Virus genome (UHGV): UHGV-0047852
Reading direction: 5' to 3' (one strand)
Origin: a virus
DNA: 11,553 nucleotides
The stretch's first letter is position 1. Each line of letters begins with the position of its first letter. The notes below the pieces were generated by a model. It ran no database searches, was not told the origin of the DNA, and worked only from the letters and a program-made list of their open reading frames with translations. Of the stretch, positions 1,851 through 11,478 are shown piece by piece. The position numbers and the translations under genes were made by a program.

Positions 1851-2453
1851 ATGAGCTATTTTCTGCGCAAAAAATGGATGGTAAATTTGTCCGGGTCAGG
1901 AAAAATTTTATGGGCGCTAAACATGAAAAAAGATTCGTATCCTTATTTGATTTGCATGACAGTTTCAGGGCTGATCTTTATTTTCCTTTTCTTCTGGTGG
2001 CGGGCAGATATCTACAGGGTCACGTTTCTTAATCAGAGTATATCCCACTATTACATTCTGTTTAGCATGGGAATAGCTTTTCTGTTATCTCTGTTTTGGG
2101 TTAAGAAGGGGATAGTAAAACAAAGCGGCTGGAAGAGTCTGTCAGCATACCTTAAGGTTTATGCAGGGATGTGCATATTTGCTGGATTTTTTCTGATTAT
2201 ACCCCTTACGACACTAACTTATTTTTTGCCTGGAGAGACATCGTCTTATGTTGCACCGTATCGGTATACTTCCGGTAGTTCAAAAAGTTGTTCTGGAGCT
2301 GAGGTGGATGACCCCGATCTACATGAGAATATTCGCATTTGCTATCCGTATGGCAATTATGAGTACGATAATATTATCTATGTTGAAAAGAAAATTAATA
2401 TATTAGGTGCGGTAGTGACATATGCACAGACCGCGCGTGATGATACTGAATGA
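1851..2453 (+). CDS. Hypothetical integral membrane protein (200 aa; about 3 N-terminal TM helices plus a hydrophilic C-terminal domain of about 80 aa); moron in the ea8.5/ea22 position
   Basis: 200-codon open frame in AT-rich DNA where stops are frequent; hydrophobic stretches YLICMTVSGLIFIFLFFWW, YYILFSMGIAFLLSLFWV, VYAGMCIFAGFFLIIPLTTLTYFL. Opposite strand to flanking phage genes. No strong SD at any candidate start (1851, 1878, 1923), so the start is uncertain. Confidence 0.6.
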   Translation: MSYFLRKKWMVNLSGSGKILWALNMKKDSYPYLICMTVSGLIFIFLFFWWRADIYRVTFLNQSISHYYILFSMGIAFLLSLFWVKKGIVKQSGWKSLSAYLKVYAGMCIFAGFFLIIPLTTLTYFLPGETSSYVAPYRYTSGSSKSCSGAEVDDPDLHENIRICYPYGNYEYDNIIYVEKKINILGAVVTYAQTARDDTE

Positions 2454-2520: not shown

Positions 2521-2663
2521 TCTGGTATTAATATTTCGCTTTACGACCGATTTTTATCTGATGATATCATGCGGTTTTCATATACTGACTTACTGTCTTT
2601 TCTCCGTTAGCGATTTTCTCCTGCTCAGCGATGATTTTATCTTTGGCTTCTAGTTAATTTCGC

Positions 2664-2885
2664 TCACTTCGAACCTCTCTGTTTACTGATAAGCTCCAGA
2701 TCTTGCTGGCAACTGGCACAAGTCCGACAACCCTGAACGGCCAGTCGTCTTCGTTCATCTATCGGATCGCCACACTCACAACAATGAGTGGCAGATATAG
2801 CCTGGTGGTTCAGGCGGCGCATTTTTATTGCTGTGTTGCGCTGTAATTCTTCAATTTCTGATGCTGAATCAATTATGTCTGCCAT
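2664..2885 (-). CDS. TraR/DksA-family C4 zinc-finger protein (73 aa)
   Basis: Two CxxC pairs (CCECGD … CRTCASC) in a 73-aa protein, typical of phage TraR-like proteins. Stop overlaps a 5-codon remnant of the ea22 start (GTGAGCGAAATTAAC-TAG, minus strand 2650-2667). Confidence 0.8.
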   Translation of the reverse strand: MADIIDSASEIEELQRNTAIKMRRLNHQAISATHCCECGDPIDERRRLAVQGCRTCASCQQDLELISKQRGSK

Positions 2886-2940
2886 CTTTCATTAATCCCT
2901 GAATTGTTGGTTAATACGCTTGAGGGTGAATGCGAATAAT

Positions 2941-2961
2941 AAAAAAGGAGCCTGTAGCTCC
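2941..2961 (-). terminator. Intrinsic terminator on minus strand (GGAGC-ctgta-GCTCC followed by U6) between orf61-like and TraR-like genes
   Basis: Plus strand AAAAAAGGAGCCTGTAGCTCC; on the minus strand this is a hairpin followed by a TTTTTTATT tract. Confidence 0.5.
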
Positions 2962-2983
2962 CTGATGATTTTGCTTTTCATGT

Positions 2984-3199
2984 TCACCGTTCCTTAAAGA
3001 CGCCGTTCAACATGCCGATCGCCAGGCTTAAATGAGTCGGTGTGAATCCCATCAGCGTTACCGTTTCGCGGTGCTTCTTCAGTACGCTACGGCAAATGTC
3101 ATCGACGTTTTTATCCGGAAACTGCTGTCTGGCTTTTTTGATTTCAGAATTAGCCTGACGGGCAATACTGCGAAGGGCGTTATTATGTTCTATTGTCAT
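2984..3199 (-). CDS. Lambda orf61-like small protein (71 aa from MTIEHNNALRSIARQ…)
   Basis: Internal ATG at 3199 has a GAGG SD 5 nt upstream; the 117-aa track ORF is an N-terminal over-extension. The C-terminal two-thirds matches my recollection of lambda orf61. Confidence 0.65.
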   Translation of the reverse strand: MTIEHNNALRSIARQANSEIKKARQQFPDKNVDDICRSVLKKHRETVTLMGFTPTHLSLAIGMLNGVFKER

Positions 3200-3206
3200 A
3201 TTGGCC

Positions 3207-3958
3207 TCACACTTCGAATGCCAGTTGAGGGGTAAAGACGTCCCGTTCAGCGTTGTAATTAAGTGAACTGGCACTGTTGAATGATTCAATGCGTTCCACA
3301 AGAACTTGCGTACGGGTTTCTTTACTTGCGGGAGCATATGGCGAACCTACCCAGGATTTGTCGATGCCTATATTTCTTGCGACGTTCGTGCTGTCTGCAG
3401 ACGAAAGCGGTACATGAGTAAAAATGTCTTTATTTAACATCCGTAACCCATGAATCTTGGTGATTGGGTAGCCGTACTGATCTACAACATGACGTATAAG
3501 ATCGCGTAGTTTAGCCCGACACGCTCTCGGTCGTTTTGCATCGTATTCCCCCATCGAGCCGATGCAGACGCGGGGAAACTCATGGCACAGACGAATAAAT
3601 CGCTCATCTGGTTCGTTCATGTGCCACACCGGAGCACCAATAAATTTACCGTGAGGCCATGCCGCAATCAGGGCGTCATTCTCTTCACTGGTTCCGCCGA
3701 TAACATCCGGGATAACCGCGAATGAGAAACGAGGGTGATTGCCCCAGCGTTCAACAAATTGTAATATTCATTCCAGTCTACGGCCTTGTTTTTTGTCCAG
3801 AATGTGAATGCACCATTATCAAGAGCAAATGATTGGGTGACTTCGGAAGCCAGATCAATCTGAGCTGGATTAGCAAAACTGATGAATGCGTGTCTGCCTT
3901 TCCAGGCTTTCAACGCACAGGTATCGGGAGTTATTGGACCACCGTGAAAATGAATCAT
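3207..3958 (-). pseudogene. Frameshifted gene for an unrecognised protein of about 250 aa (N-terminal part [31 protein letters not shown]…; C-terminal part …AVIPDVIGGTSEENDALIAAWPHGKFIGAPVWHMNEPDERF…QLAFEV) occupying the lambda orf63 position
   Basis: Two adjacent minus-strand ORFs (3668..3958 and 3207..3629) in different frames; extending the downstream frame upstream gives continuous plausible protein back to about 3768, so a single 1-nt indel near 3760-3770 would join them. The ATG at 3958 overlaps the orf60a-like stop (ATGA). Confidence 0.6.
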
Positions 3959-4113
3959 ACACTCTCCCGTTTATTATTTATCTCCTCAGCCAGCCGCTGG
4001 GCTTTCAGCGGATTTCGGATAACAGAAAGGCCGGGAAATACCCAGCCTCGCTTTGTAACGGAGTAGACGAAAGTGATCGCGCCTACCCGGATATTATCGT
4101 GAGGATGCGTCAT
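3955..4113 (-). CDS. Lambda orf60a-like small protein (52 aa, [52 protein letters not shown])
   Basis: Hand-translated; ATG overlaps the exo stop (ATGA) as in lambda; C-terminus diverges from lambda. Confidence 0.65.
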
Positions 4114-4790
4114 CGCCATTGCTCCCCAAATACAAAACCAATTTCAGCCAGTGCCTCGTCCATTTTTTCGATGAACTCCGGCACCATCTCGTCAAAACTC
4201 GCTATGTACTTTTCATCCCGCTCAACCACGACATAATGCAGGCCTTCACGCTTCATCCGCGGGTCATAGTTGGCAAAGTACCAGGCATCTTTTCGCGTCA
4301 CCCACATGCTGTACTGCACCTGGGCCATGTAAGCCGACTTTATGGCCTCGAAACCACCGAGCCGGAACTTCATGAAATCCCGGGAGGTAAACGGGCATTT
4401 CAGCTCAAGGCCATTGCCGTCACTGCATAAACCATCGGGAGAGCAGGCGGTGCGCATACTTTCGTCGCGATAGATGATCGGGGATTCAGTAACATTCACG
4501 CCGGAAGTGAACTCAAACAGGGTTCTGGCGTCGTTCTCGTACTGTTTTCCCCAGGCCAGTGCCTTAGCGTTAACTTCCGGAGCCACACCGGTGCAAACCT
4601 CGGCAAGCAGGGTGTGGAAGTAGGACATTTTCATGTCAGGCCATTTCTTTCCGGAGCGGGGTTTTGCTATCACATTGTGAACCTCTGAAGCGGTGATGAC
4701 GCCGAGCCGTAATTTGTGCCACGCATCATCCCCCTGTTCGACAGCTCTCACGTCGATCCCGGTACGCTGCAGTATAATGTCCGGTGTCAT
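4110..4790 (-). CDS. exo: Lambda exonuclease Exo (Red-alpha, 226 aa)
   Basis: Translation [65 protein letters not shown]… matches lambda Exo. Confidence 0.97.
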
Positions 4791-5572
4791 GCTGCCACCT
4801 TCTGCTCAGTGGCTTTCTGTTTCAGGAATCCAAGAGCTTTCACTGCTTCGGCCTGTGTCAGTTCTGACGATGCGCGAATGTCGCGGCGAAATATCTGGGA
4901 ACAGAGCGGCAATAAGTCGTCATCCCATGTTTTGTCCAGGGCAATCAGCAGAGTGTTAATCTCCTGCATGGTTTCATCGTTAACCGGAGTGATGTCGCGT
5001 TCCGGCTGACGTTCTGCAGTGTATGCGGTATTTTCGACAATGCGCTCGGCTTCATCCTTGTCATAGATACCAGCAAATCCGAAGGCCAGACGGGCACACT
5101 GAATCATGGCTTTATGACGTAACATCCGTTTGGGATGCGACTGCCACGGCCCCGTGATTTCTCTGCCTTCGCGGGTTTTGAATGGTTCGCGGCGGCATTC
5201 ATCCATCCACTCGGTAACGCAGATCGGATGATTGCGGTCCTTGCGGTAAATCCGGCATGTGCAGGATTCATTGTCCTGCTCAAAGTCCATACCATCAAAC
5301 TGCTGGTTTTCATTGATGATGCGGGACCAGCCATCAACGCCCACCAACGGAACGATGCCGTTCTGCTTATCAGGGAAGGCGTAAATTTCTTTCGTCCACG
5401 GATTAAGGCCGTACTGGTTGGCGACGATCAACAATGCGATGAACTGCGCATCGCTGGCATCACCTTTAAATGCCGTCTGGCGAAGAGTGGTGATCAGTTC
5501 CTGTGGGTCGACAGAATCCATGCCGACACGTTCAGCCAGCTTCCCTGCCAGCGTTGCGAGTGCTGTACTCAT
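4787..5572 (-). CDS. bet: Single-strand annealing recombinase Bet (Red-beta, 261 aa)
   Basis: Translation [82 protein letters not shown]… matches lambda Bet; overlaps the exo start. Confidence 0.97.
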
Positions 5573-7846: not shown

Positions 7847-8173
7847 ATGCAACCACTTACATACCAACAGACTAGCGGATTTAGCCCGACTGCGGTGATA
7901 AATCGTTCTCAAACAAAACAGGTGCCAGGCCACGAAAAAATCCGTGATGCCGTCCGCGCCTGGTCGGCTGTAGATAATCAGGATGTCGTTGCCACACTCA
8001 TTGTGAATGAGTATCGGGAGCAGGGCGGCGGCACCATCGATTTCCCTGATGATGTCAGCCGTGCACGCCAGAAGCTGTTCCGCTTCCTCGATAACAAATT
8101 CGATTCTGAAAAATACCGAAATAATGTGCGTGAACTGACCCCGGCAATTCTGGCGGTACTACCGCTGGAATAA
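7847..8173 (+). CDS. YdaT-like (CII-position) protein, apparently C-terminally truncated (108 aa)
   Basis: Similarity from memory to Rac YdaT (motifs EYREQGGG and PAILAVLP); AAAGGAG SD. The ORF stops soon after the PAILA(V/I)LP motif whereas YdaT continues about 30 aa. Confidence 0.55.
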   Translation: MQPLTYQQTSGFSPTAVINRSQTKQVPGHEKIRDAVRAWSAVDNQDVVATLIVNEYREQGGGTIDFPDDVSRARQKLFRFLDNKFDSEKYRNNVRELTPAILAVLPLE

Positions 8174-10009: not shown

Positions 10010-11092
10010 TTAGAACTGGTAAACCATACCTACAGCAACGATATCATCGGTAGCAACGCCAGATGCTTTCGTGAAATCGCTCTTATCAATCAGGTTGATT
10101 TTGTAGTCAACAAAAGTGGACATATTTTTGTTGAAGTAATAGGTTGCACCTACATCAACATACTCAACCAGGTCCTGATCACCCCAAACACCCAAGTCTT
10201 TTCCTTTAGAATGCAGGTAAGCAACGGATGGACGCAGGCCGAAGTCGAACTGATATTGTGCAACAGCTTCGAAGTTTTGTGCTTTGTTGGCAATATGGTT
10301 ATTACCAAAAACAGTCATGTTCTGGGTTTCAGAATAGGTGGTGGCCAGATAGATGTTGTTCGCATCATATTTCAGACCAGCTGCCCATACTTCAGCATTT
10401 TGACCAGAAGCATTCAGACCGTTGTTACCGTAGATAACCTGATTATTAGTGCGATCAGATTTAGCATAGGTTGCACCCACGCCGAATCCTTCATACTCAT
10501 AAGTAGTTGAGAAACCGAAACCATCGCCATTAGTTTCAGTTACTTCATTTCGGTCATTTTTGCCCTGATACTGAGCTGCAAAGTTCAGGCCATCAACCAG
10601 ACCAAAGAAGTCGTTGTTACGATAAGTTGCAACACCTGTGGTGCGACCAGTCATGAATACATCTGTTTGGGTCCAGGTATCGCCACCGAATTCTGGCAGA
10701 ACGTCGGTCCATGCACCAATATCGTATGCTACACCGTAGTTACGGCCATAATCGATGGAGCCGTAGTCACCGAATTTCAGGCCAGCGAAGGCAAGACGGG
10801 TTTTATCTTTGGAGGAACCTTGAGATTCAGCGCGGTTGCCTTTGAATTCATATTCCCACTGACCGAAACCAGTCAGTTGATCGTTGATTTGGGTTTCACC
10901 TTTGAAGCCAAGACGGGCATAAGTAGTATCACCATCATCTGCATCATTAGAGGAGAAGTAGTGCTTAGCATTAACTTTCCCGTACAGATCCAGCTTGTTA
11001 CTGTCTTTATTATAAATTTCAGCTGCCTGAGCAGACATCGCCATCAGTACTGATGCAGCTACAGCAGAAATTGCCACTGTTAATTTTTTCAT
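10010..11092 (-). CDS. nmpC: Outer membrane general porin, NmpC/OmpC family (about 360 aa with signal peptide [23 protein letters not shown]), apparently intact
   Basis: Signal peptide then [16 protein letters not shown], typical of OmpC/OmpF/NmpC porins; C-terminal …VAVGMVYQF ending in Phe. Opposite strand to quuD, as nmpC is in DLP12. Confidence 0.9.
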
Positions 11093-11478
11093 CGTGAGAC
11101 CTTTTTTTGAACATTTATTAAAAAATGATGCCCTGCGCGACAAATATTCATCTAATCAATGTGATTAATTCAAGATGTAAGTTTTAGATTCTTATTTAAA
11201 TTGTGATCTAGATCTCTATTTTTATCTGAACTTTTTCTAATGCATGCTGTGCATGACTATTCTCTGAAAGAAAATAAATTTGGTAGCTAAATTATATTAA
11301 AGGTTGTTATTTATAAGTGTTCTATAATTCATCTCTTTAATTTAAATTCACTGAAAATAACGTCGGAAATTATTTAATGATTATTTGTTTATTTTTCCTT
11401 ATGTGATTGTGGTGGTGTTTTGAACACTCGATATCATTCTCACAAATATTGTTTAGAGGTTTACGTACGTAAAAAATT

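Follow-up and report, generated by a model that had tools for sequence, protein, structure and literature searches.

Enzymes of the TGT type and bacterial DpdA exchange bases by double displacement, with one aspartate acting as general acid/base, another as nucleophile and a third reading the base, and in bacterial DpdA a zinc-binding CXCX2CX22H motif is conserved (PMC10164549). Hutinet et al. 2019 (PMC6884629) listed in their Supplementary Data 1 the DpdA of phage SfI (NC_027339, YP_009147480), which comes without preQ0 or archaeosine synthesis genes, and considered that singleton DpdAs of this kind may have diverged functionally. In the DNA of Salmonella phage 7-11, dADG stands in for about 0.02% of G. 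The DNA of Pantoea phage vB_PagS_MED16 (MED16) contains dADG as well, and the restriction enzymes tried on it were not blocked.

Here we describe a locus in the virus genome UHGV-0047852, of which a stretch of 11,553 nt (the window) was analysed as a whole. A sequence-only reading of the window had pointed to an unrecognised gene of about 250 aa that is split by a single frameshift, and had left open whether this was a recently inactivated accessory gene or a sequencing or assembly indel in an intact one. We compared the locus with SfI and other phages, with E. coli prophages and with the enzymes introduced above.

Gene order at the locus

An ORF scan placed all pL-operon genes of the window region, including both halves of the split gene, on the minus strand (Table 1). 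The Red recombination genes exo and bet (4110..5572, minus strand), both intact, belong to the same leftward early operon and lie directly upstream. They are separated from the split gene by orf60a, for which PF07026 was recorded on the sister loci. The proposed translational coupling to orf60a was borne out, the start codon of the split gene overlapping the orf60a stop as ATGA. The proposed overlap with orf61 downstream exists only if the longest possible ORF is taken (ATG 3337, the SfI annotation). It does not apply to the conserved 71-aa gene, which starts at ATG 3199, as annotated in PhiR5_1 and in RefSeq E. coli, is preceded by a GAGG Shine-Dalgarno sequence and leaves a gap of 7 nt.

Table 1. 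Features of the window at and around the split gene.
Feature	Position	Strand	Remarks
bet	5572..4787	-	intact; Red recombination
exo	4790..4110	-	intact; Red recombination
orf60a / DUF1317 gene	3955..4119	-	stop overlaps dpdA start as ATGA (3958..3955)
dpdA pseudogene (probable; singleton DpdA / TGT-superfamily homolog)	3207..3958	-	752 nt here; 753 nt intact
ORF-A, truncated product, 96 aa	3668..3958	-	native residues 1-66 including D47-N-G-A-F51, then 30 out-of-frame residues
Second frame (-1 register), native codons 67-250	3207..3767	-	open from 3767 to the stop 3209..3207
1-nt deletion, G missing	between 3760 and 3759	-	codon 67 (AGA, Arg67); alignment column 212
orf61-like gene, 71 aa	2984..3199	-	start ATG 3199, 7 nt past the dpdA stop
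Replacement module, 774 nt	3182..3955	-	blastn against lambda NC_001416

A blastn comparison with lambda (NC_001416) matched window positions 3956..4300 to lambda 31194..31538 and positions 2652..3181 to lambda 30380..30910. Between these two blocks, the module listed in Table 1 stands in place of 283 nt of lambda (30911..31193), and its upstream break in homology falls exactly at the dpdA start codon. The sequence-only reading had called this a precise gene-for-gene replacement at the orf63 position. The position is correct, and the exchange is wider than one gene, since the replaced lambda segment comprises orf63 together with the 5' part of the annotated orf61. At the upstream edge, orf60a encodes 54 aa ending in ...NNKRESV in the window and 60 aa ending in ...NNKRGAVCTKHLLLS in lambda. 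The module exchange has thus also rewritten the last codons of orf60a, thereby creating the ATGA coupling.

Three further observations concern neighbouring parts of the window. A run of six T residues at window 3134-3139 corresponds to seven in the lambda reference (NC_001416, 30856-30862). The T6 version, which is common to many E. coli prophages, yields the 71-aa orf61-like ORF (2984..3199), whereas the annotated lambda orf61 (61 aa) departs from this frame after residues EIKK. It follows that the lambda orf61 annotation may be a frameshifted form. On the strand opposite to the pL operon, between xis and a TraR/DksA-like gene, there is a 200-aa ORF (window 1851-2453, plus strand) with membrane-protein-like hydrophobic stretches and a GC content of 39%, compared with 46% for the window. 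This ORF, which had no match in a Pfam search and is kept in related prophages as a hypothetical protein, looks like a moron. Finally, the right arm of the prophage holds a porin gene (window 10010-11143, minus strand) that is annotated as OmpC/OmpD in close relatives and is probably one reason why all E. coli genomes were matched in a whole-window search.

A single-base deletion splits one gene

In Enterobacteria phage SfI and Escherichia phage PhiR5_1 the locus holds one annotated gene of 753 nt that encodes 250 aa, and a megablast search against phage genomes covered the whole stretch in both phages, with one extra base in each. When window, SfI and PhiR5_1 were placed in a three-way alignment, the only difference between the window and SfI in 782 nt was the absence of one G from the window. 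The site reads TACAGATTT in SfI and TACA-ATTT in the window, the gap falling between 3760 and 3759. Written across the whole site, the window allele is TACAATTT and the G-containing allele is TACAGATTT. No homopolymer run is present at the deletion site. The SfI alignment thus supports the earlier suggestion that the two ORFs are halves of a single gene of about 250 aa (250 codons, with a one-nucleotide frameshift), and the deletion falls within the range near 3760-3770 that had been estimated for the shift. Since the shift strikes codon 67 of 250, ORF-A is composed of 66 native and 30 out-of-frame residues.

A search of 5.8 billion proteins returned 6182 homologs. Among the best 120 of these, which came from Enterobacterales, Aeromonas and Vibrio phages, almost all were 247-252 aa long. 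The idea that the two ORFs are normally separate genes, named beforehand as an outcome that would speak against a split gene, was ruled out in this way, the homologs being single ORFs of about 250 aa. Intact homologs were found at the orf60a-orf61 junction itself, where the sequence-only reading had suggested looking for them: in SfI and in a prophage of E. coli ZH193, whose copy (WP_000581109) has the same orf60a-X-orf61 context and lies at att-lambda.

Identity of the split gene

The sequence-only reading could not assign the gene to a family. Its intact ortholog is SfI gp34 (YP_009147480), the SfI gene that matches the window except for the deletion, and this protein, which belongs to the TGT superfamily, has been catalogued as a singleton DpdA. 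The gene was therefore already known rather than unrecognised. Several comparisons with the repaired protein agree with this identity. The protein matched PHROG 887, 'queuine tRNA-ribosyltransferase', with E=4e-99. An AlphaFold2 model built from a 45-sequence alignment is a TIM barrel with a pLDDT of 72 and a poor prediction for the C-terminal 60 residues, and this (beta-alpha)8 barrel, the fold of the TGT superfamily, was closest to solved TGT-family structures. In a fold search among predicted viral structures, all named matches were phage queuine tRNA-ribosyltransferases. By tblastn, the gene was found in 111 phage records, including Salmonella phage 7-11 (E=4e-28), MED16 (E=7e-38), HK106, BTP1 and SPN3UB. 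The repaired protein, for which a lack of any detectable fold or homolog had been considered, thus has a clear fold and a clear family.

A link to a DpdA of established activity came from hhalign, in which a 68-sequence profile of the family was aligned with the DpdA of phage 9g at 98.3% probability (E=1.4e-14), pairing LDNGAF with LDSGAF, KIHG with KVHG and SADS with CDSS. Among the 68 diverse family members D47 and D189 were invariant and D85 was near-invariant. In the alignment, D47 (LDNGAF) and D189 (SADS) fall on the LDSGAF and CDSS motifs of 9g DpdA, and D85 is two columns off.

General-purpose models were silent on this family. At a cut-off of E<=1, neither the repaired protein nor any of the two fragments matched Pfam, including the TGT model PF01702, with E. 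coli Tgt scoring 560 bits as a control, and the DpdAs of 7-11 and MED16 had no Pfam match either. NCBIfam and PADLOC likewise had no match for the repaired protein or for either fragment. Searches of PDB sequences by phmmer and hmmsearch, for which the protein itself and two family profiles served as queries, returned chance matches only. No match was obtained when the family profiles were compared by hhalign with E. coli Tgt as a single sequence, so that of the hhalign comparisons only the one with 9g DpdA worked. By its catalogued ortholog and its profile match, the split gene is a singleton dpdA, a member of a known family within the TGT superfamily.

Function of the intact protein

E. coli possesses the queuosine pathway, and phages with a singleton DpdA are thought to take preQ0 from their host. 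What is known of the family suggests that the intact protein would replace guanines of the phage DNA by the 7-deazaguanine base preQ0. This base would come from the host queuosine pathway, since the phage is without synthesis genes of its own: none of the preQ0/G+ synthesis genes folE, queC, queD and queE was found in the window or in the sister loci. Some temperate phages carry the gene in their leftward early operon, with the Red recombination genes on one side and xis/int on the other, and the enzyme would be expressed with the pL operon at an early stage of lytic growth. Marks of dPreQ0/dADG at a low level would result, and these could blunt restriction. Such a protective role is uncertain, because modification is sparse in 7-11 and the restriction enzymes tried on MED16 DNA were not blocked.

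We regard a DNA guanine/7-deazaguanine transglycosylase as the most likely activity of the intact protein. It is unlikely, in our judgement, that the family consists instead of TGT-fold enzymes that act on tRNA, on a protein N-terminus (as in CBASS Cap10) or on a free base. Such a substrate would agree with the absence of the zinc site that bacterial DpdA and TGT possess (PMC10164549), as the CXCX2CX22H motif is absent here and no Cys or His follows D189. It would also agree with the very low modification in singleton phages and with the functional divergence raised by Hutinet et al. [quoted passage not shown] The immediate neighbours, orf60a and orf61, offer it no support either: neither a CD-NTase nor a QueC-like partner lies next to the gene. 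There is also no dpdB beside it.

Inheritance of the deletion and decay of the prophage

The truncated 96-aa product with its out-of-frame tail is a signature of the window allele, and we used it for an exact protein look-up. The exact product was present on 86 contigs, in 177 index blocks, from NCBI E. coli drafts, Logan and ENA gut metagenomes. Ten loci were fetched from these contigs. In all ten, the 752-nt remnant differed from the window by 0-1 SNP, and the locus belonged to the same lambdoid prophage at att-lambda, adjoining ybhC/ybhJ. Their flanks, by comparison, differed from the window by 8-40 SNPs (a divergence of 0.1-0.5%) and showed at least four different large internal deletions, with O and P retained in 6/10. 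Because the same allele sits on diverged and differently deleted backbones, the frameshift appears to be single, early and inherited. These comparisons indicate that the deletion is real, that it arose once before the prophage lineage diversified and that it has been inherited since. Of the two alternatives offered by the sequence-only reading, the recently inactivated accessory gene was the right one.

The prophages have also lost DNA elsewhere. Compared with intact relatives, the window carries a 6.2-kb internal deletion (junction at window 8171/8172) by which O, P, ren, emrE and ybcK are gone, and a ydaT-like ORF (7847..8173) is cut at the junction, leaving 108 aa of 179 aa. With O and P lost, the window prophage is replication-defective. 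In sister contigs with the same dpdA frameshift, large deletions have arisen independently at other places (junctions at window 6100/8995, 4390/9692 and 4984/9184). One contig from a human gut metagenome (ENA OQIG01001572, coverage 2.4x) has both the dpdA deletion and the 6.2-kb deletion of the window. A further 22 indels are private to this contig; most of these fall in short homopolymers, and three are within the dpdA remnant. As this is a low-quality assembly, these extra frameshifts should not be read as biology.

The simplest reading of the loss would be neutral decay, as expected for an accessory gene of the lytic cycle in a domesticated and defective prophage. The remnant itself, with its 0-1 SNP, does not distinguish such decay from a selected loss. 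The loss of dpdA may have removed a liability, either because host defences act on 7-deazaguanine DNA or because leaky expression damages the chromosome of the lysogen. There is precedent for the former, as dpdA loss-of-function mutants were selected as escapers of Dag1, a glycosylase that targets preQ0-modified DNA (bioRxiv 10.1101/2025.10.29.685425). It would also fit with such a liability that the frameshift is older than the diversification of the prophage lineage, and that exo and bet are intact in the window. On the other hand, these prophages are decaying in general, and several large deletions that occurred independently would be expected if the loss was neutral. Moreover, one inactivating event was seen, with no recurrent independent hits, and it is common for other E. 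coli to have the gene in intact form. We thus consider a selected loss of dpdA quite unlikely. Our credence is lower still for the frameshift itself having been positively selected, be it through glycosylase or type IV restriction attack on 7-deazaguanine marks or through leaky modification of the host chromosome, even when the weaker variant is counted in that the 96-aa N-terminal fragment has gained a function of its own. If the loss was selected, a trade-off between modification and anti-modification would be acting on the prophage inside its host.

Coding capacity of the split allele

Both reading frames are open over 98 nt (3767..3670). Within this zone there is no -1 slippery heptamer of the form X XXY YYZ and no homopolymer of five or more, and programmed frameshifting was ruled out on these grounds. 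A heptamer A AAA AAC lies upstream (codons 55-57). The -1 frame that it would give access to meets a TGA at 3770..3768 before the deletion is reached, so this heptamer is unable to rescue the frame. The first start codon in the second frame is GTG 3629, which corresponds to Val111 of the native protein. Codons 67-110, which include the near-invariant P84-D85, are therefore untranslatable, and the deletion parts D47 from D85 and D189. Judged by these coding constraints, the window allele makes no active enzyme and the gene is dead.

It is highly improbable that the ORF pair still yields a functional product by -1 frameshifting, by transcriptional slippage or by two fragments that reassemble the TIM barrel. 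Split (beta-alpha)8 barrels can sometimes reassemble, the zone in which both frames are open is of some length, and the allele has been kept with hardly a SNP in 752 nt while the lineage diversified. Such a low SNP count, however, fits the low divergence of the flanks, and the intact allele is otherwise identical, so that no recoding signal has evolved. The lack of a heptamer and of a homopolymer in the zone argues against recoding, and any pair of fragments would miss residues 67-110, as the second frame starts at Val111.

Authenticity of the deletion

The gene was present and intact in 81/5426 complete RefSeq E. coli genomes, and the deletion was found in 0/81 of them. The exact deletion junction was also absent from GTDB representative genomes and from IMG/VR viral contigs, and an exact-junction scan of metagenomes gave one low-coverage contig. 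After the negative outcomes in complete genomes, GTDB and IMG/VR an assembly error was still possible, and it was the exact look-up of the 96-aa product that decided the matter. The window itself shows two gaps in about 10.3 kb when compared with an independent complete genome (3181+4218+2877 nt aligned). A sequencing or assembly indel in a gene that is intact in the organism, which these negative scans would fit, thus has a negligible probability, given that the same truncated product occurs on 86 contigs of independent assemblies from NCBI, Logan and ENA, that one and the same allele was present in all ten independent loci, on backbones unlike in SNPs and structure, that the deletion lies outside any homopolymer and that the window is nearly without other indels.

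Discussion

Altogether, we put the probability at roughly 85% that this locus is a lineage-fixed singleton dpdA pseudogene in a decaying lambdoid prophage at att-lambda of E. coli. An ORF pair annotated as 'hypothetical' is hereby given a name and a likely function. The split is real and marks a lineage rather than an error, and annotators should flag the pair as a dpdA pseudogene. Taken alone this matters little, as the gene family is already catalogued. The wider question is whether, and to what end, temperate phages of the lambdoid and P22-like types use their short singleton DpdAs to modify DNA with preQ0 of the host, and for this question the intact alleles, SfI gp34 and WP_000581109 of E. 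coli ZH193, are better suited than the broken copy.

Among known systems, CBASS Cap10 (PDB 9ntn) has 10% identity only to the protein. The window gene has no CD-NTase or Cap9 neighbour and lies in a phage early operon, not in a defence island. The DpdA1 proteins of phages 9g and CAjan and the bacterial DpdA (S. Montevideo, PDB 7ui4) are 317-413 aa long, as against 250 aa here, and unlike these the window protein is without the CXCX2CX22H motif, a DpdB partner, adjacent folE/queCDE genes and a Pfam TGT match. Closer are the DpdAs of Salmonella phage 7-11 and Pantoea phage vB_PagS_MED16, with 35-36% identity over near full length and the common motifs D-N-G-A-F, P-D, W-H, H-G-L-R and A-D-S. These two are also singletons that depend on host preQ0. 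They differ from the window protein in their C-terminal 50 residues and occur in virulent or other-type phages rather than in a lambdoid pL operon, and their activity is inferred from DNA composition. The closest described system is the singleton DpdA 'group 3' of Hutinet et al. 2019 (PMC6884629), which contains the exact ortholog SfI gp34. The SfI gene is nucleotide-identical to that of the window except for one base, occupies the same orf60a-X-orf61 slot downstream of exo and is likewise without preQ0 synthesis genes. SfI gp34 is intact, whereas the window copy is frameshifted at codon 67 and unable to encode the enzyme.
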